A stretch of DNA of 64,000 nucleotides from Desulfosudaceae bacterium (GTDB lineage Bacteria > Desulfobacterota > Desulfobacteria > Desulfobacterales > Desulfosudaceae): assembly GCA_963674745.2 (NCBI GenBank), contig CAXXDV010000001.1:1952001-2016000 (forward strand), given 5' to 3'. The notes below the pieces were generated by a model. That model saw only the letters and a list, made by a program, of their open reading frames with translations. It had not been told where the DNA came from and did not search any database. Numbering within the stretch: the stretch's first letter is position 1; each line of letters starts with the position of its first letter. Shown here one piece after another: positions 622-17,963 of this stretch. The position numbers and the translations under genes were made by a program.

Positions 622-2523
622 ATGGACAATCAGGGCCGGAATCAGCCAGGGCAAAAAAGAAAGTGGATATTCACCCTCAGGTTCAAGGTGATGTTGATCT
701 TTCTGCTACTGACCCTTGCGCCGGTGCTGATTATCGGTTATTTTTCCTTTCATTTTTCCGAAGAACTCATTGTCAGCATGGTGGTGCGCCAGCTTGAAAA
801 CGTGGCCAAGGACAAGACGGTGCTTCTGGAGGGCTGGCTGAAAGAACGCGTCGCCGATGTTTCCATGGTGGCCGAAACGTCTCTGGTCCGATCAATGGAT
901 GAGGACCGCATTCGATCGTATCTTGATCTGATTCGTGAAAAATATGGTGTATACAAAAGCCTGGCTGTTGTTTCTGCCTCCGGCCGGGTCGTGGCCGCAA
1001 GCCCGCGACAACAGGCGTATCCGCAAGGTGCTGTTGATGACTTATATCGGGTGCGGAAAAATCTTTTCATCTCGGATATCACCTATGCGGTTGAAGAAAA
1101 GGAGTCATCCTTTTTTATTGCAGTTCCTGTCATCGGAGCCGACGGTCAATTGGCGGGAACGGTTTACGGGAAGATAGGCACGGAAAAAATTATTTTATTC
1201 ATTCTTAATGTTTCTCTGGGCACTACCGGAGAATGTTATCTTGTGGACCGGGACGGTCGCTTTCTGGCCCATCGGGATCCGTACCGAATACTGACGGAAA
1301 ACATCTCCAAGTCCGACAGCTTTCGCAATATTTTTCAAAAAACAGATCGGAAAAGCACTTATCGCGATTATCGGGGCATCGAGGTGCTGGGCGCATCCCT
1401 TCAGGTCGGGGACACGGACTGGTATATCGTCGTGGAACAGGACCGGGCCGAGGCGATGGCCGCTGCGGATAAGCTCAGACACGTGATTTATCTGACCCTG
1501 CTGTTATTTATAATCAGCGCCCTGATGCTGACCTCGATGATCGCCTATCATATTGTTGCCCCCATTCGTAAGCTCAGCCGATACGCCGGACAGATTGCAG
1601 ATTCCCGGTTTGAAAGGCCCGTCAAAAAAATTGATCGCAGTGATGAGATCGGCATGCTGTTTGAGGCGCTGACGGACATGGCCGAAAGGCTTCAGGAACG
1701 GCATACCCGCTTGAAAGAGCAAGTCGGGCAACGGGAGGCGGCGCTCAAGGAAGCCGATCTGATCCTTCAAAAAACCCGGTTGATTGCCGAACGTTCTGAA
1801 AAATTCGCTGCCATGGGCCAGATGGGCGCTGCCGTCGCCCACGAAATCCGCACACCGCTCACCTCCATCAAATTGTTTCTTGAATCTGTTCAGTCGGAAA
1901 TCGATATCTCCCCGGAATATGAAGAAGATTTTAACATAGCCATGAATCAGATCGGCCGAATTGAGGCCACCATCAACCGTTTTCTGGACTTTGCCAAGCC
2001 CCAGGAATTGCAGTTTTCGGAGATTGAGTTAAACCCGTTTATTACCGATCTGCTGATCATGGTCCGGCCCCAGGTCAACCGCCAGGAATGTGTGTTGATG
2101 GTTGACCTGGCCGAAGATTTGCCCGTTATCAATGGTGATCGGCGGTTGCTGGCCGAGGCACTGATCAACCTGCTGGTCAATGCCCTGGATGCCATGCCGA
2201 AATGCGGGACCCTGACTGTAACTGCGGTGCGAGATATTTTTGCGGTGACCGGTCGGGACATTCCCTGTGTACGGATTGATATCGCAGATACCGGTTACGG
2301 TATCGTCGACGACCAGATGGAAAATATTTTTAAACCGTTTTTCACCACCAAGGCGACGGGGACCGGTCTGGGACTGTCCCTGGTGCTAAACACGATCCGC
2401 AGTCACGGGGGCGTGATCCAGGTGAAAAGCGCTATCAATAAGGGCACGGTGTTTTCTGTTTTTATGCCTGTTTCCACGGATGCGCCGCTGGATGAATTAA
2501 ATGGAAAAGATATTACTGATTGA
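622..2523 (+). CDS. Membrane sensor histidine kinase (TM, Cache-like periplasmic domain, TM, HAMP, HisKA, HATPase)
   Basis: Two hydrophobic segments, HAMP-like DEIG, H-box AHEIRTPL, N-box NLLVNALDA, DTGYG, FFTTKATGTGLGL. Confidence 0.92.
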   Translation: MDNQGRNQPGQKRKWIFTLRFKVMLIFLLLTLAPVLIIGYFSFHFSEELIVSMVVRQLENVAKDKTVLLEGWLKERVADVSMVAETSLVRSMDEDRIRSYLDLIREKYGVYKSLAVVSASGRVVAASPRQQAYPQGAVDDLYRVRKNLFISDITYAVEEKESSFFIAVPVIGADGQLAGTVYGKIGTEKIILFILNVSLGTTGECYLVDRDGRFLAHRDPYRILTENISKSDSFRNIFQKTDRKSTYRDYRGIEVLGASLQVGDTDWYIVVEQDRAEAMAAADKLRHVIYLTLLLFIISALMLTSMIAYHIVAPIRKLSRYAGQIADSRFERPVKKIDRSDEIGMLFEALTDMAERLQERHTRLKEQVGQREAALKEADLILQKTRLIAERSEKFAAMGQMGAAVAHEIRTPLTSIKLFLESVQSEIDISPEYEEDFNIAMNQIGRIEATINRFLDFAKPQELQFSEIELNPFITDLLIMVRPQVNRQECVLMVDLAEDLPVINGDRRLLAEALINLLVNALDAMPKCGTLTVTAVRDIFAVTGRDIPCVRIDIADTGYGIVDDQMENIFKPFFTTKATGTGLGLSLVLNTIRSHGGVIQVKSAINKGTVFSVFMPVSTDAPLDELNGKDITD

Positions 2524-3964
2524 TGATGATGAAGGCCTGCTTCATTTTTTGAGCCGGTTCTTTCTGCGTAAAGGGTTTGACGTTACCACTTTTGCAGATG
2601 CCCGCGAAGCCATCGATGCCCTGTCCAGTCAAGGTTTCGATCTGGTCATGCTGGATTACAAAATGCCCGATCTGAACGGTTTGGACGCTTTGGACCAGAT
2701 CAAAAAAATTGACGCAAAAACGCCGGTGATTCTCATGACCGCTTATGGCACTACTGATCTGACCATCGAAGCCATGAAACGCGGGGCTTATGATTATCTG
2801 GTCAAGCCTTTTGATCAGATGGATCTGACGCGCATTGTGGGTGAAGCACTGGCGGTCAATCGTCAGGTGAAGGATGTGGTCGGGTTTCCTGTGACCGAGC
2901 CGGCGCCGCGCTCTTTTTCCAAAACCAAAAGCGCCCTCCAGATCATCGGCAACAGCCGCAAAATGCAGGAAATTTATAAGATGATCGGTCAGATCGCGGA
3001 AAAGGATGTTTCCATTTTTATCACCGGTGAAAGCGGCACGGGCAAGGAACTTGTTGCAAGGGCCATTTATCATCATAGCCGTCGCAAAGATAAACCCTTT
3101 ATCGCGGTCAACTGCGGGGCGATTCCTGAAACCCTGTTTGAAAGTGAGCTTTTCGGGCACGAACGCGGTGCCTTTACCGGTGCCGACCGGACAGTTATGG
3201 GAAAAATTGAAAGGTGTGACCGGGGGACGTTGCTTCTGGATGAAATCACCGAAATGTCCCTGTCGCTTCAGGCCAAAATGCTGCGGGCTATTCAGGAAAA
3301 GGAAATCGAGCGCGTCGGCGGTAACCGGGTGATTCCCGTCGACGTCCGTATTCTGGCAGCCAGCAACAGGGATATCGAAAAAGAAGTGGAAGCCGGCCGT
3401 TTTCGTCAGGACCTCTACTGGCGGCTGAAGGTCATTTCGATCCACATGCCGCCCCTGCGGGAACGGAGCCAGGATATTCCCCTTCTGGTGAAATATTTTT
3501 TAGAACGTTTCTGTGCCGAATACAATATGGCCCGTTGTTATATCAAGGACAGCGCGCTCCAAAGACTTTCTGATTATTCCTGGCCGGGCAATGTGCGTGA
3601 ACTTGAAAACTGTGTGCGCCGGGCGGTGCTGTTGTCTGCCGGAAATGTCATTGCCGAAAAAGACCTGATGATTCCGGAGACTGAAGAGGAAAAACGGATT
3701 ATTGAACTCAGCCGGTCCGAGCTGCTGGGACGGCTTCGGGAAAAGCTGGAAGACATTATCCCGGACATTCTGCGGCTGTCCGACCAGAATGTTTATGCCA
3801 ATATCATTGGTCTGATGGAGGAAACCCTTATCGCTGAGGCCCTCCGTCAATGCGGTGATAACCAGGTGCAAGCCGCTAAAATGCTTGGCATCAGCAGGAA
3901 TACGCTGCGCGATCGTCTTAAAAAGCAGGTGGACCGGATCGACACCAATGACAACCCGGCTTGA
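2501..3964 (+). CDS. Sigma-54-dependent NtrC/AtoC-family response regulator (REC-AAA+-Fis HTH)
   Basis: LLIDDD and LDYKMP receiver, GESGTGKE Walker A, GAFTGA loop, WPGNVRELEN, NQVQAAKMLGISRNTL HTH; overlaps the kinase 3' end. Confidence 0.95.
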   Translation: MEKILLIDDDEGLLHFLSRFFLRKGFDVTTFADAREAIDALSSQGFDLVMLDYKMPDLNGLDALDQIKKIDAKTPVILMTAYGTTDLTIEAMKRGAYDYLVKPFDQMDLTRIVGEALAVNRQVKDVVGFPVTEPAPRSFSKTKSALQIIGNSRKMQEIYKMIGQIAEKDVSIFITGESGTGKELVARAIYHHSRRKDKPFIAVNCGAIPETLFESELFGHERGAFTGADRTVMGKIERCDRGTLLLDEITEMSLSLQAKMLRAIQEKEIERVGGNRVIPVDVRILAASNRDIEKEVEAGRFRQDLYWRLKVISIHMPPLRERSQDIPLLVKYFLERFCAEYNMARCYIKDSALQRLSDYSWPGNVRELENCVRRAVLLSAGNVIAEKDLMIPETEEEKRIIELSRSELLGRLREKLEDIIPDILRLSDQNVYANIIGLMEETLIAEALRQCGDNQVQAAKMLGISRNTLRDRLKKQVDRIDTNDNPA

Positions 3965-3984
3965 TGCCCTGGCCGATATACCCA

Positions 3985-4018
3985 AAAATGACCGGTTTCG
4001 CCCAGAGGCCGGTTTTTG
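3985..4018 (+). terminator. Probable intrinsic terminator after the response regulator
   Basis: ACCGGTTTC-gccca-GAGGCCGGT hairpin followed by TTTT. Confidence 0.55.
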
Positions 4019-4260
4019 ATTTACCGGGTTTTTTCAAAGCGCCTTCATGTTCAATTCCTGGATACCTGTTCAAGGTTTGTACAAGCACAAAAAAACCATT
4101 TAAATAAAATACTTGTAATTTTTTTGGTATCTGCTCAATTCCCCCTGATGCATTTTTTTGTGACGCCTCCCTGCTTATCGTACATACTCCGGCACCCTGA
4201 TCATGGGTAGAATCTGTTTAATTCTCAATATGTTAGATCTGATAAAAAAAATGACGGCTT

Positions 4261-4277
4261 TTGGCATAACCGTTGCA
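4261..4277 (+). promoter_or_regulatory. Sigma-54 (-24/-12) promoter for the ORF 4345-gdhA unit
   Basis: TTGGCATAACCGTTGCA = TGGCA-N6-TTGCA with exact GG-N10-GC spacing, directly downstream of a sigma-54 activator gene. Confidence 0.85.
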
Positions 4278-4344
4278 TTTTAAGCGTGTAACAGAGGGAT
4301 AAATTTTTTTGTTCAATTAATGCATTAAAAAGGGAGGACCTCCC

Positions 4345-4923
4345 ATGAAGAAAAATCAGGGGTATGAGTCAGCAGGATCTGTGGCAGTCGCACCACTTCG
4401 TCTCAGAACAATGAAAACGGATTTTGACAATGTTTTAGTGTCCGAAAGAATGGCCGAAATCATGTCCATGTGTGACCGCAACAATCCCGTTTACGAACAG
4501 GTTTCAAGTTTCTGCGTGGCGCTGTATGCGCTGGGGTTTTTTGATTGCCCGGATTTCATGTCGTTTCAGGATGTGTCCGCAGACGAAGCCGCAGAAATAT
4601 TACGAACGGATTTTTCTGAAATTGATTTGAATGAAATTCCTGAAAATTATCACATTACCCGATCAAAGGAACAGTATCTGCTGGTCATTGGTGACCCTCT
4701 CTTCCCAAGCCATTTTGCGGTAGTGGCAGACAAAAGCGCGGTACGGCCCTATTTTTCCAAGCTGCCTTTTTTCGGGGCCGGGTACGACAGTATGGATGAG
4801 CTGGAGAGGGAATTTGTCGGTATAGATGGCTTAACAGCGGAAGATTTTCATTTTTACCGTAAAAAATCGAGCGGTCGGATTCCGTCGTCATCCAGAGGTA
4901 AAATTTATATTGTTAAGGATTAA
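4345..4923 (+). CDS. Hypothetical protein (192 aa), first gene of the gdhA unit
   Basis: GGGAGG RBS, follows the sigma-54 promoter, 37 bp before gdhA; no family recognised. Confidence 0.75.
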   Translation: MKKNQGYESAGSVAVAPLRLRTMKTDFDNVLVSERMAEIMSMCDRNNPVYEQVSSFCVALYALGFFDCPDFMSFQDVSADEAAEILRTDFSEIDLNEIPENYHITRSKEQYLLVIGDPLFPSHFAVVADKSAVRPYFSKLPFFGAGYDSMDELEREFVGIDGLTAEDFHFYRKKSSGRIPSSSRGKIYIVKD

Positions 4924-4939
4924 TAATTCATAAATTTGA

Positions 4940-6316
<1,377 letters not shown>

Positions 6317-6352
6317 CCGGTAGATAACCTTTTTACGAAACCGTCGGTTTTG

Positions 6353-6388
6353 CCCAAAAGCCCGGAGAAAAATCTTCGGGCTTTTGGG
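6353..6388. terminator. Hairpin between convergent gdhA and the PEP-synthase-like gene, likely a bidirectional terminator
   Basis: CCCAAAAGCCCGGAGA-aaaa-TCTTCGGGCTTTTGGG inverted repeat. Confidence 0.7.
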
Positions 6389-6441
6389 TTACGGGGAGCC
6401 CTCTTCATACGTCTCAAGCTCAAGCGGAAAGGGCCTAAAGG

Positions 6442-9048
6442 TTATCCTTTTGTTGACCCACCGGCCAGGCAACACAACACTCTCTGGGAAGCCACATCCG
6501 AGTGGATGGTCATACCGGTCTCCCGGACGTCCGCCACTTTGACCACATGCGCCAGATGCCCGTCCACCGGGCTGAGGACTTCCAGCAGGTTGGGCTGGTC
6601 CATAAACCACTGCCGGTTGAAACGAACGTCCGTCTGTTCCGGGTAAATGGCCATATAAAAAATTTGTGTTTCAATAAGATCATGAAAAAAGTGTGTACCA
6701 AATGACAGGTCCGGAATCAGGCTGCCGTCCCGGTAGCTGATTTCGGCCATGGCCGCGATATGATTGATTTCCGAAAAATGCACCGGCACACCCATGGCCG
6801 GTGTCTGGGTTCCCCACCGGCCCGGCCCCATAAGCAGGGTCGGGGTTTTTGCCCGGTCTGCGATGACCCTGTTCAGTTTGCCGACCAGGCGGGCCACGCT
6901 GTATTTCTCAGAAATAGACAGGCGGGTGTAAGACTCCGAGTCGACAAATATAATCATCGAAATCGGCTGGGCGATATTGCCGCCCATAAACCGGCCGTCC
7001 ATGCGAATAAGGGTGTTTTCCTCAGTCACGTTTTCCGGAAAAGGTTGGCTCCCCCCCATGCCGATGGTCTGGAAGGGGCGGCACTGGAGCAGGTTGATCT
7101 GAATGTCACCGGGTTGGTTAAAGTTAACTGTAAATTCAATATCCACGGGATAACGATAGGCGTTTTCAAGGCGCTTGAGAAGGGCGCTCATGACATCGAT
7201 AAAGGGTGTCGTGGTCAGAAACGGATCAAATGTTAAAATCCGCTGGTCCTTTTCCGGCCGTCCCATGTCCCGGAGCGCCTGAAGGGCTTCCGTATCCCGG
7301 GTGGTCAGAAGATCCATGCGAACGGGAACATGCTTTTCCAGCAAGGATTCAAAAGACAAGCTTTCAATACGGTTTTCGTCCAGATTCAGCAGATCCACGA
7401 AATGCTGGGAAAATCTTCGCAGGTCCTTCATTTCTGCCAGGGGTTTTACCAGAGGGTCATCCACCGCGATGATACGCGGGTAATCATTTTCCACACGGTC
7501 TACGGCGCGGGTTCCCAGACCGTATACCAGGCGGATCATGCCCGCTTTGGCATCCATTTCTTTTTTCCACACGAAGGGATTTTGGGAAAGCCCCACACCG
7601 GCCATTTCGGGGAAAAAGTAGTCTTTGTGATAGGTCCCGGAAACCCGCTGCACCAACAGGGCCATCTGTTCGTCCTGCCGGTCCAGTCCCCGTTGGAGGC
7701 GGTAGGCCAATGCATCTTCGTTCATGGCGCTGGCAAAAATGTAGCGGACGGCTTCTTCGAATTTTTTGTAGCGTTTATCAGGGGGGCCTTGATTGACGCA
7801 GAAGCAGCTTTCATACTTTCCGGCGAATGAACTGCCGAAGGCGTCTTCCAGCAGGCTGGAAGATCTGACAATAATGGGAGACTGGCCGAAATATTCCAGC
7901 ATCAGCTGAAACTGTTCCGTAATTTCATCAGGGAATACGCCGCTCAGCATATGCTCCCGCAGTTCAGCACCCCGTGCAAAATACCCCTCCCGTGTTTTAT
8001 GGGCCATGAAAAGTTTCCACCAGCCGTTCTGCACGATATAGGAATAAAACACATCCGAACCGATATAAAAGGAGTCATGTTGTTCGAGCATATCGGCCCA
8101 GTCAAAAACGGTGTCATTGGCCAGAATTTTCCGCGCCAGCAGCATGCCCACGGATTTGCCGCCGATAAATCCGGAACCGATAAGGCGGACTTTAATGCGT
8201 AAAAGATCGGCCAGCGTAAGGTGCTCCCGGATCATGGGCAGGATCTTTTTGTTCCGGGTCAGCATCAGGCGGCTGAGCTGTTCCACCATGTCCCTTTTTT
8301 CCTCTGGCAGGGCGTTGGACTCCTCAAGATTTCCGGCCTGCATAAACAAGCGGTCCCAGTAATCCAGATGCCGGTGGTCCACGCTGGTTTTCTGGCTGGC
8401 AAGATGGGTGAAAAGTTCGGTTGCGTCCACGCTGTTAATTACTGGCTGAAGCGTATTCTTCTGCCTTACGTGGGGAAAAAACATGGTCGGGGAATACCGG
8501 TGTTGCACCTTCACCGGGTGGATACAGACCTGTCCTTTGTAGTTGTATACTTCAATGAGCACCTGGGTGATTTCCCTTATGCGAGCAATGGCCTTAAAAG
8601 AATGCCTGTCCCGGAGAATCGCGAAATAAGCAATGGTATTGAGTTCAAAAAGATACGGACAGGTAATGGAAAAAAAATCACCGATCATCAGGTCCGTGGC
8701 CCAGAAGTGCAGCAGGTCGGACAAAGAATCAAACACATAGCAGACGTCTTTTCCTCCCCGGGTGATGATGCCATGCACCTGTGTGGAAAAGGACTCGAAT
8801 CCTTTTTCCATGTTAAGACGGTATACGGTCAGGTTTTTTCGTTCCTCAAGCAGTGCCGAATGGCGGGCAAAGCGGAAATATACCACCCGTTCGTTATTGG
8901 CCAGGGCGTTGTTGACAAAAGCGGTTACCAGGCGTTGATAGTCATCAATGGCATCCACCTGCCAGACCACATTGTCTCCCCGTCGCAGGTGGTCGATAAT
9001 CGAATCCAGGCTTTTCCAGCCCGTGCTGATATCGGAATATAACGTCAT
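6442..9048 (-). CDS. PEP/pyruvate-binding (PEP synthase/PPDK N-terminal ATP-grasp) domain protein with an N-terminal degenerate KaiC/RecA-like domain
   Basis: IVRSSSLLED..SFAGKYES, VQRV, DIEF and LLQCRP ATP-grasp motifs; C-terminal GPGRWG and SFGTHFF; no PEP-binding TIM barrel seen; AGGAG RBS. Confidence 0.85.
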   Translation of the reverse strand: MTLYSDISTGWKSLDSIIDHLRRGDNVVWQVDAIDDYQRLVTAFVNNALANNERVVYFRFARHSALLEERKNLTVYRLNMEKGFESFSTQVHGIITRGGKDVCYVFDSLSDLLHFWATDLMIGDFFSITCPYLFELNTIAYFAILRDRHSFKAIARIREITQVLIEVYNYKGQVCIHPVKVQHRYSPTMFFPHVRQKNTLQPVINSVDATELFTHLASQKTSVDHRHLDYWDRLFMQAGNLEESNALPEEKRDMVEQLSRLMLTRNKKILPMIREHLTLADLLRIKVRLIGSGFIGGKSVGMLLARKILANDTVFDWADMLEQHDSFYIGSDVFYSYIVQNGWWKLFMAHKTREGYFARGAELREHMLSGVFPDEITEQFQLMLEYFGQSPIIVRSSSLLEDAFGSSFAGKYESCFCVNQGPPDKRYKKFEEAVRYIFASAMNEDALAYRLQRGLDRQDEQMALLVQRVSGTYHKDYFFPEMAGVGLSQNPFVWKKEMDAKAGMIRLVYGLGTRAVDRVENDYPRIIAVDDPLVKPLAEMKDLRRFSQHFVDLLNLDENRIESLSFESLLEKHVPVRMDLLTTRDTEALQALRDMGRPEKDQRILTFDPFLTTTPFIDVMSALLKRLENAYRYPVDIEFTVNFNQPGDIQINLLQCRPFQTIGMGGSQPFPENVTEENTLIRMDGRFMGGNIAQPISMIIFVDSESYTRLSISEKYSVARLVGKLNRVIADRAKTPTLLMGPGRWGTQTPAMGVPVHFSEINHIAAMAEISYRDGSLIPDLSFGTHFFHDLIETQIFYMAIYPEQTDVRFNRQWFMDQPNLLEVLSPVDGHLAHVVKVADVRETGMTIHSDVASQRVLCCLAGGSTKG

Positions 9049-9268
9049 GGGGCCTGCTCCTTTGCACCCTCAAATTGAGTTAATATCTTTGCTGATGCTG
9101 CAATAATCATAGCCCATCAGCGGGTTTAATTCAATTGTTAAGGCCAGCCCTCAGGACGTTATCGTCGCTTGGATAATATTTGTTGTTGGGAATCTTGCTG
9201 ATCAAACGATTTGTTTTTAAACCCTTGGATAAGATTTTTGTGCGACATGGCCAGCTGATAAGGATAAA

Positions 9269-9326
9269 AGGGCTCAAGAGGCTATTTTTCAGTCGGTCCC
9301 TTGAACCCTTGAACCCTCGAATCCCT
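9269..9326. repeat. Octamer-array element (copy 1)
   Basis: GGGCTCAAG ... CCCTTGAA-CCCTTGAA-CCCTCGAA-TCCCT, 8-nt periodic units. Confidence 0.7.
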
Positions 9327-9464
9327 AAAAAATTGCCGGCGGTTGACTGAACAGACGCTCATGTCGTAACATATGCCAGCAATGCTCTGGTAGAGGCGCG
9401 ACTTCAAGCGTTAATGCCTGATGGGCAGCCGGTTAAGTGTTAGGGGGGCAATAAAATAACCGCT

Positions 9465-10247
9465 TTGAAGAAGAAAAAGTTTGTCCGACGTTTTACTAAA
9501 AGGGTTTTTACTCGGTTCCATATGAGTTTGATCCTTATATGTACAGTCCTGTCGGGTGTTATATTTTCGAAGTTCCTACTTTTTTCAGGGCTCAGCCATA
9601 TCGTAATCCGTTATAGTATTGTGCTGTTGTTCGCCTACAGCTGTTTTTTTATTTTAATGAGATTATGGCTGCAATATCTGACAGCACCTTACAGGAAATC
9701 TAAACGGAATGACAGCCTGATAGATGCTGCTGATGTAATTAGTAACTTTCCGGATTTGCCCCTCAGCAGGGGTGCTTCCAGGGTTGTCGGCCATGGCGGC
9801 AAGTTCGGTGGCGGCGGGGTGTCCGACGCCTGGGGGGAAGCCGGTGGTGTTGCCGAAACATTATCAACCGTGGGAGAAACAACCACCGGGGCAATCGGCG
9901 AGGGGGTGACGGGGGTTGGCGAGGTGGTTGCCGGGCTGGCGGATGAAGGGGGGATTGTTTTAATACCACTCATTGTTTTACTCGTTGTGCTCTTGGGTGG
10001 AGGCGTTTACCTCATTTATGAAGCACCCGTTATTTTCTCGGAGGCGGCATTCGAGATTGTCTTGGCAGCAACGCTTATCAAGAGAGCAAAGGCAATTGAC
10101 AGCCCTGACTGGATCGGGAGCGTTTTTCGTGCTACATGGCCCGCCTTCGTGTTGACGGCGGCCATCACAATCCTTGCCGGATGGGCGATGATGCACTACT
10201 TCCCAGGAGCGGCTAAAATTACAGACGTCGTCCGCAGCCTTATTTAA
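9465..10247 (+). CDS. Hypothetical integral membrane protein with Gly-rich cytoplasmic loop
   Basis: About 5 hydrophobic segments, GHGGKFGGGG motif; TTG start is uncertain (alternative ATG at 9522). Confidence 0.75.
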   Translation: MKKKKFVRRFTKRVFTRFHMSLILICTVLSGVIFSKFLLFSGLSHIVIRYSIVLLFAYSCFFILMRLWLQYLTAPYRKSKRNDSLIDAADVISNFPDLPLSRGASRVVGHGGKFGGGGVSDAWGEAGGVAETLSTVGETTTGAIGEGVTGVGEVVAGLADEGGIVLIPLIVLLVVLLGGGVYLIYEAPVIFSEAAFEIVLAATLIKRAKAIDSPDWIGSVFRATWPAFVLTAAITILAGWAMMHYFPGAAKITDVVRSLI

Positions 10248-10318
10248 AACCACCTGCCACCGGGATTTTAATGTGTTGGAAGAAATCGAAGTTGAACAAA
10301 TAAGGCAGAAAAAAAAGA

Positions 10319-10380
10319 AAGGGTTCAAGGGGCCGTTTACGTCACTTGACCCCTTGAACCCTTGAATCCTAGAACCCTTC
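10319..10380. repeat. Octamer-array palindromic element (copy 2)
   Basis: AAGGGTTCAAGGGG ... CCCCTTGAACCCTTGAATCCTAGAACCCTT. Confidence 0.75.
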
Positions 10381-10387
10381 AGTTCCG

Positions 10388-12043
10388 CTAGGAATTGATA
10401 ATCTTTCTGGCAAATTCGTCGTTGGCGTCGGCCACGTGAGAAATGCCGGTTTCGCGGGCGGTTTCCCGGTTGGCGGCAAACAGGTCGTCGCGGGTGATCT
10501 GGTTCAGTGCGAACTTTCTGGCGCCGGCCATAAGCTGCTGCAGTCCGCAGGAAAGCTTGTCGGCCAAGGTGCAGAAGGCGATGGCGCCGTAAGGAATATT
10601 GGCCATTTCTTTTTTACCGATTTTCTTTTCCACGTCAAAGTAGGACGCGAAAATTTCTTCGGGTTTGCTGCCGAGGTTGGAAACCGTTTTGGGCAGCGCG
10701 TCCCAGTTGCCCCAGATTTTTTCTTTGCGTTCCGGATGCAGAGCCCCTTCGATGTTGGCGCCGAGGTAACCCGGAATCATGATGGCCCGACCCATGCAGA
10801 TCAGCTTGGTGTAAGGTGCGCCCAGGGCGATGGCCTTGAAAATATGGTCTTCTAAGGCAAAGCCGCCGGCAAAAGAAAGGTCAACCACGTCCGCGCCCTT
10901 GGCGGCCAGCATGGCGGCATATTCGTGGGCCTTGGCATGCAGATTGATCGAGGGCACCCCCCAGCTTTGCATCATATTCCAGGGGCTCATGCCGGTACCG
11001 CCGCCGGAACCGTCTATGGTCAGCAGGTCAAGTTCGGCATCGGTAGCGAATTTGATGGCCATGGCCAGTTCGGTCATGCCGTAGGAACCGGTTTTCAGGG
11101 AGATTCGTTTGAATCCCAGGCTGCGCAGATACTCAACGCTGCTCATGAAATCTTCCCGTACCTGATCGACGCTATCCATGTTGGTGCCTCCCAGGCGGCT
11201 GTGCCGTGCGAAAGATTTGATGGCGCCCTCTTTAAACGCTTTCTGGACTTCTTTTTTGGTCGGATCCGGGTCAACCACGTATCCCCGTTGTTTCAAAAAT
11301 TGAGCGTAATCCAGGCTGGTGACCTGAATTTCGCCGCCGATATCTTTAGCACCCTGGCCCCATTTGAGCTCGATGATGCATTGGTTGCCGTATTTTTCGG
11401 CCACGAATTCGGCTACACCGTTGCGGGTGTCTTCTACGTTCAGCTGAACGATGATGGCGCCGTAGCCTTTGTCGGCATAGCGCAGATAGCCGTTTATGCG
11501 GCGTTCCAGTTCCGGCGCGCTTTTGATTTTGCCTTTTTTTGCTTTGCCCGCGCTGATCTGGGATTTGCGGTCAACGCCCACCACGTTTTCGCCGATGACC
11601 ACCGGAATACCACACAGGGCGCCGCCGATGGCAAATGAATCCCAATATCTTTCAGCAATAAAGGTGGAGCCCAGCGCGCCGGTCATTAACGGCATGCGGA
11701 CCTTTGTTTTCATCTTTTTACCGAATTGAGATTCAATGCTGACATTGGGGAAAATACAGTCGTCCGGATCGTTGCTCAATCCTTTGGGAAGACCATGGGC
11801 GCCGTAAGCGTATCCCTGGATGCGAAGGGCGTTATAGGAAACACCCACATGCGTGGTATTGTTGGCGCCGGCGGTGACCATGCCGAAGTCCCTGGGATAG
11901 AGTAATTTCCGGCCGACCATGCTGGACAGCCATGTTTCGCATTTGCCCTGACAATCCGCCCGGCAGAGGGTGCATAAGCTGGATTCCGCCGGATTACCGC
12001 GATTGGTCGTTCCCAGGGCGTCGTTGTTTTTTGAAAATCTCAT
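10388..12043 (-). CDS. FMN-binding glutamate synthase family protein (stand-alone GltB FMN domain) with N-terminal Cys cluster
   Basis: ELKWGQGAKDIGG, SLKTG, TIDGSGGGTG, FAGG, KAIALGA, MGRA motifs; N-terminal CTLCRADCQGKC; GGAGG RBS. Confidence 0.88.
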   Translation of the reverse strand: MRFSKNNDALGTTNRGNPAESSLCTLCRADCQGKCETWLSSMVGRKLLYPRDFGMVTAGANNTTHVGVSYNALRIQGYAYGAHGLPKGLSNDPDDCIFPNVSIESQFGKKMKTKVRMPLMTGALGSTFIAERYWDSFAIGGALCGIPVVIGENVVGVDRKSQISAGKAKKGKIKSAPELERRINGYLRYADKGYGAIIVQLNVEDTRNGVAEFVAEKYGNQCIIELKWGQGAKDIGGEIQVTSLDYAQFLKQRGYVVDPDPTKKEVQKAFKEGAIKSFARHSRLGGTNMDSVDQVREDFMSSVEYLRSLGFKRISLKTGSYGMTELAMAIKFATDAELDLLTIDGSGGGTGMSPWNMMQSWGVPSINLHAKAHEYAAMLAAKGADVVDLSFAGGFALEDHIFKAIALGAPYTKLICMGRAIMIPGYLGANIEGALHPERKEKIWGNWDALPKTVSNLGSKPEEIFASYFDVEKKIGKKEMANIPYGAIAFCTLADKLSCGLQQLMAGARKFALNQITRDDLFAANRETARETGISHVADANDEFARKIINS

Positions 12044-12093
12044 TCTGGTTCCTCCATTTTTCAGTTAATAGGATCTGGTCTTTCTAGCTCCCC

Positions 12094-12147
12094 AAAAAAA
12101 AACGCCTGATTTCCGGCTGGCCTTCACCAGCCCCGGAAACAGACGTC
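12094..12147 (-). terminator. Intrinsic terminator in the leader of the glutamate-synthase-family gene
   Basis: Minus strand GACGTCTG-TTTCCGG-ggctggtgaaggccag-CCGGAAA-T-CAGGCGTT ending in a 9-U tract, about 50 nt before the start codon. Confidence 0.85.
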
Positions 12148-12181
12148 GTTGTCATTTTAATAAGGTCGCACGCCGTTGTGC
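12142..12181 (-). promoter_or_regulatory. ANTAR-binding dual-hairpin RNA motif
   Basis: Minus strand GCAC-AACGGC-GTGC, 14-nt linker, GAC-AACGAC-GTC: two 6-nt loops with A1/G4 and C-G closing pairs; the second hairpin overlaps the terminator 5' arm. Confidence 0.88.
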
Positions 12182-12440
12182 ATTCTTATTAAGTTATATT
12201 TAACAAACGGAAGCTATTTAAGCTGTACTGAAGTTTTTTGTCAAGAAAAAAGTTAGTTGGAATAATTGTTAATTCTGTCTGTATCTTGTAATGTGTTTGT
12301 AAGCAGATCTGAACAGTTAACATGGATATTCGGTGTTTTTTCGAGGAAACGGCTTTTGCAGGCTTCATAAAACTATTGGCTGGTTAACCCGGTCGCAGTA
12401 AATTTCGAAAAATGTCCGGGTTAAAAAACGGTGGTGAACA

Positions 12441-13745
12441 ATGAGTATTAAAAAGACAGCAGTGACCACAGGTATCGATGGCTTTGATCGGCTTCTGGGC
12501 GGCGGTGTTTTTATCGGAGATAATGTCGTCTGGTATGATGACGAGGGTATCCTGGCCGCGGTTTTTAATTTGAATTTGATCAAAGCTTCGACGGCAGATA
12601 AAAAATATATCATTTATGTCAGTTTTGACCGCAGCCTTAAAAATCTCTTGGAACGTCTGGGAACGCTGGCTGATTCACCTTATCTGATCATTTTGGATTG
12701 TTTTACCCATGGTCTGGGAGAATCCTCCGAGATTTTTCAGGATTTTTACAAGCAGGGAACAAAGGGCTGGAAGTGCCGGGTTGTTTGCGTCGAAGAACCG
12801 CAGAATATGGATGGTGTGGCCGAGGCGTTTTATGGCATTCACCGGACACTTTCCGGTGATGTGCGGTTTGTTTTTGAAAGCTTGACCGGTATGCAATCCT
12901 TGTGGGGCGGGGAAGACCGGATTTTAAAGTTTTATTCCAGCGCTTGTCCCCGATTGTATGAATTGAATACGATCGCATACTGGGTGGTGGAAAAGCGGGC
13001 ACATTCCGAACGATTGAAGGCGAATTTTAACAAAATTACACAGGTCGCTGTCGATTTGTCGATCAAGCGGGGAAAAACGTTTTTGTCGGTTGAAAAGGCC
13101 GAGCATCGTGATACCGGAATATTGAACAATCCTGTCGCTTATTGGAACAAGGGACTGGCGGTTAATCTGGATGACGGTCGTGCCGGATCGGGGCCGATTG
13201 ACCCGGGCCGGCGGATAAAAGACCTGCGGACCCAGCGTGGTATATCGCAGAATGATTTGGCCCGGCGGGTCGGCGTGACCCCAAGCAATATCTCGCAGAT
13301 TGAAAACAGCCTGATTTTTCCCTCCATCCCCATGCTGATCCGGCTGGCAGAGGTTTTTTCAGTGAGTATCAGCTACTTTTTTGACCAGGGCGGTTCCGAA
13401 AAGCCGGCCGTGGTGTTCCCCCAAGGGGAGTCCGTCGATGTCATATTGCCGGGTGGTGATGCGCGGCATGTCACCGCCCGGCAACTGCTGCCCAGTGGCG
13501 TTGACGCTCCGATTATGCCTTACCTGATTGAGGTGGCTCCGGGAAAGACACTGCCCGGCCATTTCTTTATTCATAAAAAAGAAGAAGCCGGATTTTTGCT
13601 TTCGGGCAAGCTGACCGTAACAATCGGCAATGAAAAGCTGAAAGTCAATGCGGGTGATTTTGTATTGCTGACGTCTGAATACCCTTCACAATGGAAAAAC
13701 AACGGTCGGGAGACGGCCCGTCTGCTGTGGATAATTCAGAAATAA
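12441..13745 (+). CDS. Transcriptional regulator: degenerate KaiC/RecA-like domain + XRE HTH + cupin
   Basis: TTGIDGFDRLLGGG KaiC/RadA-like start without Walker A; IKDLRTQRGISQNDLARRVGVTPSNISQIEN HTH; HKKEEAGFLLSGKL..GD cupin. Confidence 0.85.
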   Translation: MSIKKTAVTTGIDGFDRLLGGGVFIGDNVVWYDDEGILAAVFNLNLIKASTADKKYIIYVSFDRSLKNLLERLGTLADSPYLIILDCFTHGLGESSEIFQDFYKQGTKGWKCRVVCVEEPQNMDGVAEAFYGIHRTLSGDVRFVFESLTGMQSLWGGEDRILKFYSSACPRLYELNTIAYWVVEKRAHSERLKANFNKITQVAVDLSIKRGKTFLSVEKAEHRDTGILNNPVAYWNKGLAVNLDDGRAGSGPIDPGRRIKDLRTQRGISQNDLARRVGVTPSNISQIENSLIFPSIPMLIRLAEVFSVSISYFFDQGGSEKPAVVFPQGESVDVILPGGDARHVTARQLLPSGVDAPIMPYLIEVAPGKTLPGHFFIHKKEEAGFLLSGKLTVTIGNEKLKVNAGDFVLLTSEYPSQWKNNGRETARLLWIIQK

Positions 13746-13774
13746 TCCTGCCGAACACTTCTTTAAAGGTGCCC

Positions 13775-14491
13775 TTAATAAAGGTCTTCTGAAATCAGCA
13801 CGGCTTCGGCTACTTCGCGTAAGGGCTTACGATTATCCATGCTGCGTTTCCGGATCCAGCGGTAGGCCTCGTCAATTTCCATGCCCCGCTTGCGGACCAG
13901 CACTTCCTTGGCCCGTTCTATCAGTTTGCGGGTTTCAAGCTCTTCCCTGATAATTTTGGCGTCCAGGGCCAATTGGGTATTGTGGATGGCGATCGCGGCC
14001 TGATGGGCGACAGCGGTGATCAGGTTGACCTCGGTTTCCGAAAAGTCATGGTGCTCGGCCGTGAAACAGTTCAGTACGCCGATGACTTCATTGTTTTTAA
14101 TCCGCATGGGGATGCCGACCAGGGAGACCAGCCCCAGCTTTTCCGCCATGCTTTTTTCTTTGAAGCGGTTATCCTGCTTAACATCGGAGATAATAACCGG
14201 TGTTTTGTTTGTCGCCACATACCCGACCACGCCTTCGTTCATATCAAGGGTGCGGTCCTTGACGTATTCCGGGTCAATGGCCTGGGTGGCTTTCAAGCGG
14301 ATCTTTTTCCCGCTCTCCTCCTCTTCAATCATCCACAGTGAACAGATCTCGACACCGGTCACCTTGGCTGTGACCATGACGATGAGCTTGAGAATGTCCT
14401 CCAGGTACTTTTCCGAAGCGACAGCCCGGCTGATATCGGCCAGCGCCTTGAAGTATTTATCAATGTCCGGAGGGTTGGTGGTGTGTGGCAT
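13775..14491 (-). CDS. GAF + ANTAR domain RNA-binding antiterminator
   Basis: GAF (EGVVGYVA...SLVGIPM...IGVLN...F.ETEVNLITAVAHQAAIAI) then ANTAR LETRKLIERAKEVL...EAYRWIRKRSMDNRKPLREVAEAV. Confidence 0.92.
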   Translation of the reverse strand: MPHTTNPPDIDKYFKALADISRAVASEKYLEDILKLIVMVTAKVTGVEICSLWMIEEEESGKKIRLKATQAIDPEYVKDRTLDMNEGVVGYVATNKTPVIISDVKQDNRFKEKSMAEKLGLVSLVGIPMRIKNNEVIGVLNCFTAEHHDFSETEVNLITAVAHQAAIAIHNTQLALDAKIIREELETRKLIERAKEVLVRKRGMEIDEAYRWIRKRSMDNRKPLREVAEAVLISEDLY

Positions 14492-14679
14492 AAGTCTTTA
14501 TATCCTCGTTTTTAAGATTACCAAAATTTATTATAATCGACCTGATATGTCAACTGTCGACGCTACCGGCAATTGAATAGCCGCTTGTTTATTTGATGCT
14601 TATAGTGCTATAAAGAACCACGATGGGGGTATGTTTGAACGGATAAAACGGGGGCCCGGATTTCATAAAACGGATCAGG

Positions 14680-15621
14680 ATGATTTCAGCCATAAAACAG
14701 AATCCGGTGGTCGTCCCCGGGGCATTGAAGCCCGGTGACACCATTGGTATTGTCGCGCCGGCCAGTACTTTTGACCCGGAGCGTTTCGAACAGGGTATTG
14801 CGGTGTTGGAATCCCTGGGGTTTAAAACCGCTATACCCGAGGGCCTGTTTGAGAAAGAACGATATCTGGCCGGATCTGACGCCCATCGGGCCGATATGCT
14901 GAACCGGATGTTTGCGGATAAAGCCGTAAAAGCCATTATGTGTGCCAGGGGTGGATTCGGTTCCTTGAGAATACTCTCCCGGCTTGATTTTTCAGCCATC
15001 GGAGAGAACCCTAAAATTTTTGCCGGGTTCAGCGACATTACGGTTCTTTTATCCGTTATTTTTGAAAAAACAGGGCTGGTCACATATCATGCCCCGGTGA
15101 TTACCGCACTGGCGGATGCCGGCAGGAATACAGCGAAGGGCCTGGTTGCAGCCGTTATGTCGTCAAAAGCCCTTACGGTGAAGGCGGAAGCCGGTGTTGC
15201 CCTTGTGCCGGGACAGGCCAGAGGCGTTGTCCGCGGCGGCAACCTGGCTTCCCTGTGCCAGATGATGGGAACACCCTACCAGCCTGATTTTTCGGACAGC
15301 TTGCTGTTGCTGGAAGATATTAATGAAGCCCCCTACCGGATCGACCGCATGCTGTCCCAGATGCGGCTGGCCGGATGCCTGGACGGCGTTGCCGGCGTGA
15401 TGCTGGGACGCTTTGACCGGTGTGGGGAAACGCGAACGATAAACCGGATCGTTGAAAACAGCTTTCCTTCCGGGGTACCCATCCTGGGCGGGTTGCCGGT
15501 GGGACATAATGGTGATAACCTGACCCTGCCCCTGGGGTTGACCGCGACCCTGGACGCAGATAACGGTCTGCTGCAGTATCATATACCGCCGGTCTTGTCC
15601 GGCAACGGAAGCCATTTATGA
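14680..15621 (+). CDS. ldcA: LD-carboxypeptidase (peptidase S66, muramoyltetrapeptide carboxypeptidase-like)
   Basis: LKPGDTIGIVAPAS, ARGGFG, GFSDIT (catalytic Ser), GGNL, LLEDINE, PVGH. Confidence 0.9.
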   Translation: MISAIKQNPVVVPGALKPGDTIGIVAPASTFDPERFEQGIAVLESLGFKTAIPEGLFEKERYLAGSDAHRADMLNRMFADKAVKAIMCARGGFGSLRILSRLDFSAIGENPKIFAGFSDITVLLSVIFEKTGLVTYHAPVITALADAGRNTAKGLVAAVMSSKALTVKAEAGVALVPGQARGVVRGGNLASLCQMMGTPYQPDFSDSLLLLEDINEAPYRIDRMLSQMRLAGCLDGVAGVMLGRFDRCGETRTINRIVENSFPSGVPILGGLPVGHNGDNLTLPLGLTATLDADNGLLQYHIPPVLSGNGSHL

Positions 15622-16712
15622 AAGCGGTCCATCGCCTGATGCAGGAGGCCGTTTCCCGGGGCATTTTCCCGGGAGGGGTGCTGCATGTGCGGGTGCGGGG
15701 CCGGGACCTTTTTTGTGAGCCTTACGGTCAGGCGGATGTGTTGGCCGGTCAAGCCATGACCCGGGACACGGTTTTTGACCTGGCATCGCTGACCAAACCC
15801 CTGGCGACGGCGCCGGCTGTGTTGAAACTGGTCCAGGACGGTCTGGTACGCCTTGATGGTCCCATCGGAGACATCCTGCCGGAATTTCAGCACACCGATA
15901 AGTACGATATTACGCCGGCACAACTGCTGTCGCATACGTCCGGTTTGCCCGCCCATCGGGAATACTTTTCACCCCTGGCCGACCTTCCACGAAAGAAACG
16001 ACGCCAGGCCCTATTACGGTTGCTGGCCGGCCAAAGGCTGGAAAACGAACCCGGTAAAAACCAGGTCTACAGTGATCTCGGCTATATGATTCTAAGGTAT
16101 GTGGTCGAGGCCGTATCGCATAAACGACTGGATGCGTTTGTGAGCGATGCCCTGTACACACCGCTGGGTGTTGAAGGGCTTTTTTTTATCGATCTGGAAA
16201 ACGAAACAGGGTCGTTTACTGGCGTTAGACGGATACCGTTTGCCGCCACCGAGGATTGTCAACGCCGCCGGCGGCTGATCAAGGGTATGGTTCATGACGA
16301 CAATGCATACGAAGCCGGCGGGATTGACGGCCAGGCCGGCCTTTTTGGGACAACCACGGCGGTGGCCCGGTTTCTGGATGTCCTGCTGAACATTTATCGT
16401 GGTGAAACAGTTACGGATGTGCTGTCCCGCAAAACCGTCGAATTGATGCTGGTACCCCGTCCGGACACGGCCCGGACTTACGGGTTTGATACACCGGATA
16501 TGGAGGACTCAAGCGCCGGCAGCATGTTTTCGGCCGGATCCGTGGGGCACCTCGGGTTTACCGGCGTTTCCATGTGGCTGGATGTAAGCCGGGATATTAT
16601 GGTTCTTTTGTTCACCAACCGGATTCACCCCGACCGGAATAATGCAAAGATCAAAAAATTTCGGCCGTTGCTTCATGACGCCGTTATGGGCGAACTCGTC
16701 GGAAGAAGCTAA
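15618..16712 (+). CDS. Serine hydrolase, beta-lactamase/AmpC-like family
   Basis: FDLASLTK (SxxK), LLSHTSGLP, YSDLGY, VHDDNA, GHLGFTG; ATGA overlap with ldcA. Confidence 0.88.
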   Translation: MKAVHRLMQEAVSRGIFPGGVLHVRVRGRDLFCEPYGQADVLAGQAMTRDTVFDLASLTKPLATAPAVLKLVQDGLVRLDGPIGDILPEFQHTDKYDITPAQLLSHTSGLPAHREYFSPLADLPRKKRRQALLRLLAGQRLENEPGKNQVYSDLGYMILRYVVEAVSHKRLDAFVSDALYTPLGVEGLFFIDLENETGSFTGVRRIPFAATEDCQRRRRLIKGMVHDDNAYEAGGIDGQAGLFGTTTAVARFLDVLLNIYRGETVTDVLSRKTVELMLVPRPDTARTYGFDTPDMEDSSAGSMFSAGSVGHLGFTGVSMWLDVSRDIMVLLFTNRIHPDRNNAKIKKFRPLLHDAVMGELVGRS

Positions 16713-16904
16713 AAAACCGTTGTAATCAGGCCGTTTTTTTAAAATAATCGATGATTTTTCTTGTATGGCGGCTTTTTTATTGATACAAGTATGACCTGTT
16801 CGGGCTTTTTTTAACAACTTGTTTTTTTGTAATAATTTTTGATCGGGGGTAGTGACCGCTAAAACAAGCCGGCGGATTTTTATGCCCGGTCATATCTGCT
16901 ATAG

Positions 16905-17957
<1,053 letters not shown>

Positions 17958-17963
17958 TAAATT

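Follow-up and report, generated by a model that had tools for sequence, protein, structure and literature searches.

KaiC-like domains with a degraded ATPase site, known as iKaiC (inactivated KaiC-like), are fused to signal-transduction domains in archaeal signalling proteins. The excerpts of PMC5847659 drawn on here list iKaiC-REC, MEDS(iKaiC) and DUF835(iKaiC) among these proteins, credit iKaiC to Makarova, Galperin and Koonin (2017), and cite Anantharaman and Aravind (2005) for MEDS. The present analysis concerns a 64,000-nucleotide stretch of DNA from a Desulfosudaceae bacterium (positions 1,952,001 to 2,016,000 of contig CAXXDV010000001.1, assembly GCA_963674745.2; hereafter, the window), in which two genes encode proteins, P0001 and P0002, that both start with an iKaiC domain of the RecA fold. 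In P0001, the domain precedes an ATP-grasp domain of the PPDK_N family (the PPDK type), and in P0002, an XRE-type helix-turn-helix (HTH) and a cupin domain (the XRE type). That these domains have this fold, and that they have lost the ATP site, is firmly established. The preferred reading, which is given a probability of about 0.7, is that these domains belong to an ancient inactivated family used as a transferable N-terminal regulatory module in front of varied outputs, and acting through assembly.

Several described families share features with these domains. KaiC (in its CII half), PH0284, PH0186 and SSO2452 have the RecA-type fold, the (S/T)GxxxLD motif and the Walker-B strand in common with the iKaiC family, for which modelling predicts a head-to-tail interface. 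Unlike KaiC, the family has no Walker A motif, its 'EE' pair is replaced, and identity is only 12-18%. Unlike the single-domain archaeal KaiC-like proteins, it always forms an N-terminal module in the material analyzed here, save for one 241-aa representative. The Elp4/5/6 proteins of Elongator are RecA-like, ring-forming and non-hydrolysing. Together with FlaH/ArlH, these small RecA/KaiC-like proteins (PAXNEB in the case of Elp4/5/6) have a similar fold, but their functions in the archaellum motor and in tRNA modification are unrelated, they have no fused outputs, and FlaH still binds ATP, according to the title of entry 4yds.

The archaeal iKaiC domains (MEDS, PF14417; DUF835, PF05763), as described in the excerpts of PMC5847659, embody the same concept of a degraded-ATPase KaiC-like domain fused to signal-transduction domains, and the window family combines both features, a degraded ATPase site and fusion to signalling or output domains. 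It differs from its archaeal counterparts in being bacterial (records labelled Thermodesulfobacteriota, Clostridiaceae and Verrucomicrobia) and in having its own signature. It also differs from MEDS itself: P0001 scores 14.3 bits against a threshold of 29.8. XRE-cupin and PPDK_N partners are not mentioned for archaeal iKaiC in the excerpts of PMC5847659, and text searches of the literature returned no paper on this bacterial iKaiC family. As inactivated KaiC-like signalling domains are already known in archaea, the bacterial family is a variant of these.

An earlier note on this DNA had claimed, from matching motifs, that the same domain heads both proteins. All the motif pairs it quoted are present in the translations (STGWKSLD/TTGIDGFD, GDNVVW in both, YVFDSL/FVFESL, CPYLFELNTIAY..HS/CPRLYELNTIAY..HS, ITQV in both, and KVQHR/KAEHR), and the range it gave, 8460-13150, takes in both domain-coding stretches (8449-9048 on the minus strand and 12441-13160 on the plus strand). 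The homology, over the first ~200 aa of P0001 and ~240 aa of P0002, is significant both by BLASTP and at the profile level. BLASTP aligns residues 79-184 of P0001 with 122-223 of P0002 (66.6 bits, E=9e-16, 37/106 identical, or 35%), leaving out the N-terminal third, which has diverged too far for a pairwise alignment. A hidden Markov model (HMM) built from 10 PPDK-type domains alone matches all 11 XRE-type domains, with full E-values of 3.6e-21 to 3.3e-29, while the best of 1,100 shuffled decoys reaches E 0.41. The matches come in two pieces, an N-terminal one (i-E 1.7e-8 to 0.014; 7.6e-4 for the window's own XRE-type domain) and a C-terminal one (1e-15 to 1e-20). As this HMM finds a separate N-terminal piece, the N-terminal third is also homologous at the profile level. 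Similarly, tblastn with P0001 gives a match inside the N-terminal part of the XRE-type gene in 79 of the 80 related loci, and the top match in 76, typically over ~215-225 aa at ~25-31% identity.

The alignment of 21 domain sequences of both types (A1) shows an identity of ~27% between the PPDK and XRE types, a ~37-aa insertion after the second strand in the XRE-type copy, and 16 invariant positions (in P0002 numbering, G11, D16, D27, N28, W31, F62, W155, F164, C169, P170, L172, T177, Y180, H188, Q201 and K219). Within the source genome, the domain is found in the P0001 and P0002 genes only, besides a weak third match (E 2e-5, residues 8-78) in a 462-aa frame.

The assignment of the domain to the KaiC/RecA class, also made in the earlier note, is backed by both profile and predicted fold. 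A profile is needed to reach relatives of known structure, since a single-sequence phmmer search of the PDB sequences with P0001 1-222 gave no usable match, the best being to an unrelated protein (E 0.92). The A1 profile retrieves KaiC (8zn7, E 1.5e-7), PH0284 (2.6e-4) and SSO2452 (3.4e-3). The AF2 models are confident, with pLDDT 87.4 and pTM 0.86 for P0002 1-240, and pLDDT 88.4 and pTM 0.85 for full-length P0001. Foldseek places KaiC first for the P0002 domain (7s65_B, E=1e-11, TMq 0.67), in a top set made up of KaiC, SSO2452, FlaH, PH0186 and PH0284 (E 1e-11 to 4e-10, TMq 0.60-0.68). VIA-align of P0001 1-218 gives a Z of 20.4 with KaiC 9ofh_A (root-mean-square deviation 3.1 A over 208 residues), followed by FlaH (18.0), PH0284 and SSO2452 (17.6-17.9; SSO2452 17.9), then helicases, RecA/Rad51 and Elp456 (16.8).

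Family databases reach the domain less easily. Among the 21 domain sequences, 11 match Pfam KaiC PF06745 at E≤0.1 (best 4.4e-9), eight match PAXNEB/Elp4 (best E 7.3e-7), and three each match MEDS and DUF7090 at E≤0.1 (best MEDS 4.5e-4). The PF06745 threshold is reached by 6 of 100 family representatives. Neither window N-terminus reaches a Pfam threshold, leaving traces of MEDS in P0001 (E 0.037) and of DUF7090 in P0002 (E 0.034). With NCBIfam, residues 8-72 of P0002 touch KaiC_arch_4 (E=1.7e-4), KaiC and RadA.

The ATP site can be followed across 150 listed representatives with a pairwise identity of at most 50%. None of them has the Walker A pattern G....GK[ST], and in both window proteins GDNVVW is followed by non-glycine residues; in the A1 profile alignment, the KaiC 'GtGKT' likewise lies opposite non-glycine residues of the family. 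The Walker-B-like (Y/F)VF(D/E)SL is retained, with an acidic residue that is D in 87% and E in 9% of 147 representatives. The missing Walker A and the retained Walker-B-like motif had both been observed in the earlier note. In KaiC, the glutamate(s) after strand 2 have a catalytic role; here, 'FEES' or 'YEES' of KaiC is opposite 'FDRS' in the XRE type and 'FARH' in the PPDK type, and the catalytic glutamate position is lost. The family instead has a signature of its own, consisting of TGxxxLD, GDNVVW, YxxF, (Y/F)VFD(S/C)L, NFFxxxCPxL(Y/F)(E/D)LxTxAY(F/W), HS, TTQ and KxxxR, whose residues are 87-100% conserved across the representatives.

It is barely credible that the similarity is due to chance or composition, or that the domain still hydrolyzes ATP by way of an unorthodox P-loop. 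The empty phmmer search and the retained Walker-B Asp/Glu could be cited for these ideas, but the first is contradicted by the BLASTP, profile and fold evidence for homology, and the second by the absence of Walker A in all 150 representatives and by the DR or AR found at the KaiC 'EE' position. Judged by its residues, the iKaiC domain is incapable of hydrolyzing ATP in the manner of KaiC.

The domain also behaves as a module that can be transferred between signalling proteins, at whose N-terminus it is placed: when 1.84 billion cluster representatives are searched with its profile, it is found in front of several types of output. The family, for which Pfam has no model of its own, comprises at least 1,446 clusters (50% identity) at E≤1e-3, and 257 at E≤1e-30; word-indexed searches gave 2,166 XRE-size and 3,074 PPDK-size clusters (90% identity). 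Pfam annotation of the first 100 of the 150 listed representatives identified HTH_3 and/or cupin outputs in 27 and PPDK_N in another 27. Three have GAF and Sigma54_activat domains (two of them complete, with HTH_8), one a Ser/Thr protein kinase (Pkinase; the best match overall, in a truncated sequence), and one Formyl_trans_C. One has only the KaiC-like domain (241 aa), and 40, mostly fragments, have no family. Among the other 50 representatives, P0349 has a PAS-GAF-HisKA-HATPase_c architecture and P0350 a PAS-GAF one. An HTH-only form of ~360 aa was also found. In a domain tree (FastTree, midpoint-rooted, read for topology only, without supports), the sigma54 and kinase fusions branch from within the XRE type, and the PPDK-type clade has the histidine kinases as its sister group. 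This topology fits repeated output swapping behind a retained module.

Most clusters with names are labelled Desulfobacterales or Thermodesulfobacteriota, and the PPDK type also occurs in records labelled Clostridiaceae and Verrucomicrobia. Within a sample of the phylum, 114 of 301 genomes contain the domain. Automatic JGI names describe the XRE type as 'KaiC/GvpD/RAD55 family RecA-like ATPase', and the source names shown for the PPDK type are 'PEP/pyruvate-binding' or 'hypothetical' only, without mention of a KaiC-like domain. Two unusual arrangements were also seen. One locus (L170, G151:C16) has two PPDK-type iKaiC paralogues 8 kb apart, at 5158-7773 (-) and 15528-18116 (+). P0306, of 1,484 aa, has PPDK_N, iKaiC and PPDK_N in tandem, which is a gene fusion or a mis-call.

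As for how such a module could act, iKaiC modules would form head-to-tail assemblies of the KaiC/RecA ring kind, in which each former nucleotide site is opposed to the conserved CPxLxEL and K/R face of the adjoining subunit. Assembly would set or gate the oligomeric state of the output domains, and a ligand or partner at the subunit interface would possibly trigger the response. In the window, one copy is attached to a PuuR-like HTH-cupin regulator, divergent from a glutamate-synthase-domain-like (GltS-like) gene that is probably also under GAF-ANTAR antitermination, and the other to a putative ATP-grasp (PPDK_N) phosphotransferase next to the glutamate dehydrogenase (GDH) gene, gdh. When three copies of P0002 1-240 are modelled together, the predicted complex is head-to-tail, with an ipSAE of 0.70 versus 0.26 for the best control; the runs have at least 85% of contacts in common, and the partner pLDDT is 86 or higher. 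In calibration, 20 of 30 proteins solved as pairs attained the ipSAE mark, against one of 23 solved as single chains, a yardstick that is only roughly valid here (own alignment, three copies). In the modelled interface, residues 33-37, 63-68, 147-153 and 184-188, which form the former ATP site, contact residues 162-175 and 218-230 of the adjacent subunit; P170, H188 and K219, all of them conserved, are part of this interface.

The earlier note had suggested a ligand-binding or oligomerization module and called it a sensor. In a rival reading along the sensor line, the degenerate nucleotide site would be a pocket for a small anionic metabolite and the module primarily a ligand sensor. Candidates would be 2-oxoglutarate, glutamate/glutamine, ADP/ATP without hydrolysis, or a second messenger, and such sensing could coexist with oligomerization. 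The family's near-invariant polar residues, which are unlikely to be purely structural, speak for it (D25/N26 97-99%, Q199 99%, K217 97%, R221 98%, H186 92% and C167/P168 98-99%, in HMM numbering). In the model, K219 and its neighbours are turned towards what was the ATP site in the adjoining subunit, where KaiC/RecA rings have trans-acting Lys/Arg fingers. The nitrogen and glutamate gene contexts point the same way, and the excerpts of PMC5847659 list MEDS, which is related and likewise an inactivated KaiC-like domain, among sensor domains. On the other hand, no P-loop is left to hold a phosphate, and the XRE-cupin, sigma54 and histidine-kinase fusions examined already place a cupin, GAF or PAS domain, each a dedicated sensor, between iKaiC and the output, whereas the PPDK and Ser/Thr-kinase fusions show none. 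Assembly is favoured over ligand sensing because the first three kinds of fusion have such a classical small-molecule sensor of their own. Oligomerization or scaffolding is, therefore, at least as likely as ligand sensing, and a primarily ligand-sensing module is possible, if rather doubtful.

The earlier note had linked the domain to nitrogen genes, and the neighbour counts for both types do show contexts enriched in glutamate and nitrogen genes. The GltS-like gene is the commonest neighbour of the XRE type, being present in 36 of 80 loci at 47-88% identity (34 loci by clustering), and a GAF-ANTAR gene is present in 23 of the 80; 60 of these loci have more than 2.5 kb of flank on both sides. 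Each of the other neighbour clusters (integrase, AMP-binding enzyme, Fe-S oxidoreductase, SPFH and AcrB) occurs in at most 10 of the 80 loci. The link between the XRE type and the GltS-like gene is still present at 30-33% identity (L162 and L164). A GDH homologue is found in nine of 17 PPDK-type loci, in eight of these within ~1.1 kb, and within 2 kb in two of four further PPDK-type loci.

The leader of the GltS-like gene adds to this picture. In the excerpts of Ramesh et al. 2012 (PMC3369931), an ANTAR target is described as a pair of short hairpins, each with a hexaloop (A at position 1, G at position 4), in which an intrinsic terminator competes with the second hairpin; such sites occur upstream of glutamate synthase genes, with a general tie to nitrogen metabolism. 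The window leader, 98 nt upstream of the GltS-like start, has this layout. Its hairpins, GCAC-AACGGC-GUGC and GAC-AACGAC-GUC, are separated by 13 nt, both have hexaloops with A at position 1 and G at position 4, and a strong terminator re-uses in its 5' arm the ACGUCUG of hairpin 2 (minimum free energy fold). The leader folds at -39 kcal/mol (z -4.19). The same motif is found in 29 of 34 related GltS-like leaders, compared with 2% of shuffles, and nowhere else in the window. As the leader fits an ANTAR substrate known upstream of glutamate synthase genes, it supports a nitrogen-related neighbourhood. An Rfam scan of 3500-15000 (E≤1) gave no match, for this leader or elsewhere in that range, so standard annotation would miss these ANTAR sites.

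The GltS-like protein itself covers only 114 of the 369 positions of PF01645, and its 551-aa sequence (GltS551) has no match among the PDB sequences at E≤0.01. It is 77-88% identical in most related loci and 47-61% in the rest. Its residues ~22-36 form a Cys-rich CxxCxxxCxxxC stretch, a sequence pattern that might bind an Fe-S cluster.

The two genes lie 3.4 kb apart in the window. The earlier note had taken one sensor module wired to both an enzyme and a DNA-binding output to suggest a dedicated signalling system. This is only weakly supported and does not hold in the form stated, as genes of the two families mostly lie apart. A second iKaiC gene is absent from all 80 XRE-type loci, and none of 17 PPDK-type loci has a separate XRE-type match. 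In the order sample (151 genomes, 77 with a match), 58 matching genomes have XRE-size or shorter frames only, and 19 have a PPDK-type frame of ~870 aa, of which 11 also have an XRE-size frame and eight have no XRE-type match. Outside the source genome, the two types in this sample are on different contigs, or 484 kb apart (G067). The sole further genome with both genes side by side, G161, belongs to another family of the phylum, and has within 16 kb the PPDK type, the XRE type, a GltS-like gene, an ELFV (GDH-like) dehydrogenase and two GAF-ANTAR genes, with 36-53% identity to the proteins of the window.

A dedicated pair, in which the iKaiC domains of P0001 and P0002 co-assemble in mixed rings and the enzyme and repressor respond jointly, would account for the spacing in the window and for the same gene set in the distant G161. 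The locus and genome counts above are against it, as is the separation of the two types into deep clades with ~27% identity, and such a pair appears improbable.

The outputs of the two window proteins can be compared with known regulators and enzymes. The C-terminal half of P0002 shares the HTH_3 and Cupin_2 layout of PuuR-type repressors, and NCBIfam PRK09943 PuuR (NF007408) matches residues 253-429 with E=7.1e-21 and 74.6 bits, below the cut-off of 211 and thus not as an equivalog. PuuR has ~185 aa, and is not known to have a KaiC-like N-terminus. From these comparisons, the HTH-cupin half of P0002 resembles PuuR in architecture, but P0002 is a different protein. An operator search of both divergent intergenic regions yielded no candidate operator; the single inverted repeat that it found, at 12157-12192, shares sequence with ANTAR hairpin 1.

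P0001 has the ATP-grasp domain in common with rifampin phosphotransferase and phosphoenolpyruvate (PEP) synthase. Structure searches find its domain similar to those of rifampin phosphotransferase, HpeI and PEP synthase (Foldseek with 5hv3, E=1.7e-14; VIA of residues 289-665 with 5hv1_A, Z 17.0). Unlike these PPDK_N enzymes, P0001 has an N-terminal iKaiC domain and a different C-terminal domain. PPDK_N is the only Pfam family matched at E≤0.1, with neither the PEP-utilizers swivel nor the PEP-utilizers_C barrel (TIM barrel) detected, and the NCBIfam PEP synthase models reach 30-66 bits versus cut-offs of 598-1063, all equivalogs being far below the cut-off. The C-terminal ~195 residues form a confidently modelled domain (AF2), in which H786 is invariant in two alignments (A2, 40 sequences; A3, 14), and G743, R744 and G746 are at least 90% conserved. 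The sole match of the A3 profile in the PDB, to phosphoketolase, spans 26 residues and is at chance level (E 0.26). For this domain, the Atlas returned only clusters, at 0.92-0.93, that are unnamed or named 'hypothetical' or 'putative PEP synthase'. Matches to the N-terminal domain dominated the whole-model VIA search, which barely sampled the C-terminal one. P0001 is probably an ATP-grasp (PPDK_N) putative phosphotransferase adjoining gdh, and His786 may, by analogy, be a phospho-carrier.

These features also raise the idea that the iKaiC domain of P0001 is a phospho-acceptor or autoinhibitory target of the protein's own ATP-grasp/His machinery, an echo of KaiC phosphorylation, and no assembly module. 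It could draw on the resemblance of the PPDK_N domain to the ATP-grasp domain of rifampin phosphotransferase, on the confident domain packing implied by the pTM of the full-length model, and on the invariant His786 at a helix start, which is also where the phosphohistidine of swivel domains is located. Such a role would leave unexplained why the same module precedes HTH, sigma54, Ser/Thr-kinase and histidine-kinase outputs; besides, Pfam detects no PEP-utilizers swivel, the C-terminus has no PDB match, and three loci (L015, L075 and L083) have paralogues of the enzyme core that lack iKaiC. It must be considered very improbable.

These three paralogues of the PPDK_N core (L083:13616-15271 (-), L075:6900-8567 (-) and L015:15441-17042 (+)) match P0001 residues ~236-826 at 25-27% identity, and are within ~8 kb of an XRE-type iKaiC gene. 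That of L083 adjoins gdh, and the same locus has GltS-like and GAF-ANTAR genes.

Several points weigh against a transferable, assembly-based regulatory module with a nitrogen connection. The window domains are below the PF06745 threshold (12.9 bits versus 26.6 for P0002, and P0001 not reported at E≤0.1). The oligomer is a prediction, and since KaiC-fold hexamers are in the training data, its passing may reflect a memory of solved rings. The conserved D27, N28, W31, C169 and Q201 are outside the listed interface and could line a ligand pocket instead. The regulatory targets proposed for P0002 would be those suggested by adjacency alone. Finally, a GltS-like neighbour is missing from 44 of the 80 XRE-type loci, and a gdh within 10 kb from eight of the 17 PPDK-type loci, which makes the association with nitrogen genes a tendency and not a rule.

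The coordinates of the features are collected in the table.

Table. Features of the iKaiC locus, in window coordinates
Feature	Position	Strand	Basis or remark
Glutamate dehydrogenase (gdh)	4961-6316	+	Pfam ELFV_dehydrog E 2.3e-88
P0001, 868-aa PPDK_N protein	6442-9048	-	iKaiC + PPDK_N + C-terminal domain
C-terminal domain of P0001, residues 673-868, no family	6445-7032	-	Motifs GPGRWG, GTH(786)FF
PPDK_N ATP-grasp (AMP/ATP-binding) domain of P0001, residues 295-672	7033-8166	-	Pfam PF01326 E=2.1e-52
iKaiC domain of P0001, residues 1-200	8449-9048	-	BLASTP to P0002, AF2 model, VIA-align
Membrane protein, 260 aa, no family	9465-10247	+	Between both iKaiC genes
GltS-like protein, 551 aa	10388-12043	-	Pfam PF01645 E=3.1e-14
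Putative ANTAR target, 5' leader of GltS-like gene	12094-12182	-	Two hexaloop hairpins + overlapping intrinsic terminator
P0002, 434-aa XRE-HTH/cupin protein	12441-13745	+	iKaiC + HTH_3 + Cupin_2
iKaiC domain of P0002, residues 1-240	12441-13160	+	AF2, Foldseek, NCBIfam KaiC_arch_4
XRE-type HTH_3 DNA-binding domain of P0002, residues 259-313	13215-13379	+	Pfam PF01381 E=7.2e-15
Cupin_2 domain of P0002, residues 362-431	13524-13733	+	Pfam PF07883 E=2.1e-13
GAF-ANTAR RNA-binding antiterminator	13775-14491	-	Pfam GAF 8.9e-21, ANTAR 7.2e-20

The gdh and P0001 genes are convergent, with a gap of 125 nt, and the GltS-like gene is divergent from that of P0002. A 192-aa open reading frame at 4345-4923 (+), with a good ribosome-binding site and no Pfam family, is directly upstream of gdh and may form one transcript with it. 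A terminator-like site at 4517-4533 was considered as a gdh leader and dropped, as it is located within this frame with its separate ribosome-binding site. Immediately before the gdh region, 622-3964 (+) encodes a dCache-HAMP histidine kinase and a REC-sigma54-HTH_8 activator. The predicted membrane protein between the iKaiC genes has a glycine-rich middle and no Pfam or NCBIfam family, and tblastn found no homologue of it in 107 related loci. Consensus scans for sigma70 promoters and terminators did no better than shuffles (13 vs 11.8 and 18 vs 15.1, respectively).

A broader proposal can be put forward as a long shot, namely that the family is the bacterial counterpart, in Thermodesulfobacteriota and some other bacteria, of an archaeal 'KaiC hub'. 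A nucleotide-free KaiC-like ring module would read a nitrogen or glutamate signal at the subunit interface, from a metabolite or a shared partner protein, and impose it on interchangeable outputs. Among these would be a PuuR-like repressor, sigma54 activators of the NifA kind, kinases of both the Ser/Thr and the His class, and a phosphotransferase of the ATP-grasp type that acts on GDH or alongside it; two members in one cell could form mixed rings.

Overall, recognizing the module explains the unannotated N-termini of the XRE- and PPDK-type proteins, and extends the idea of an inactivated KaiC signalling module from archaea to bacteria. It points to candidate regulators of gdh and of a glutamate-synthase-like gene in sulfate-reducing bacteria, in which nitrogen control is poorly charted, and offers a compact model for the role that a RecA/KaiC ring may keep after the loss of its nucleotide.

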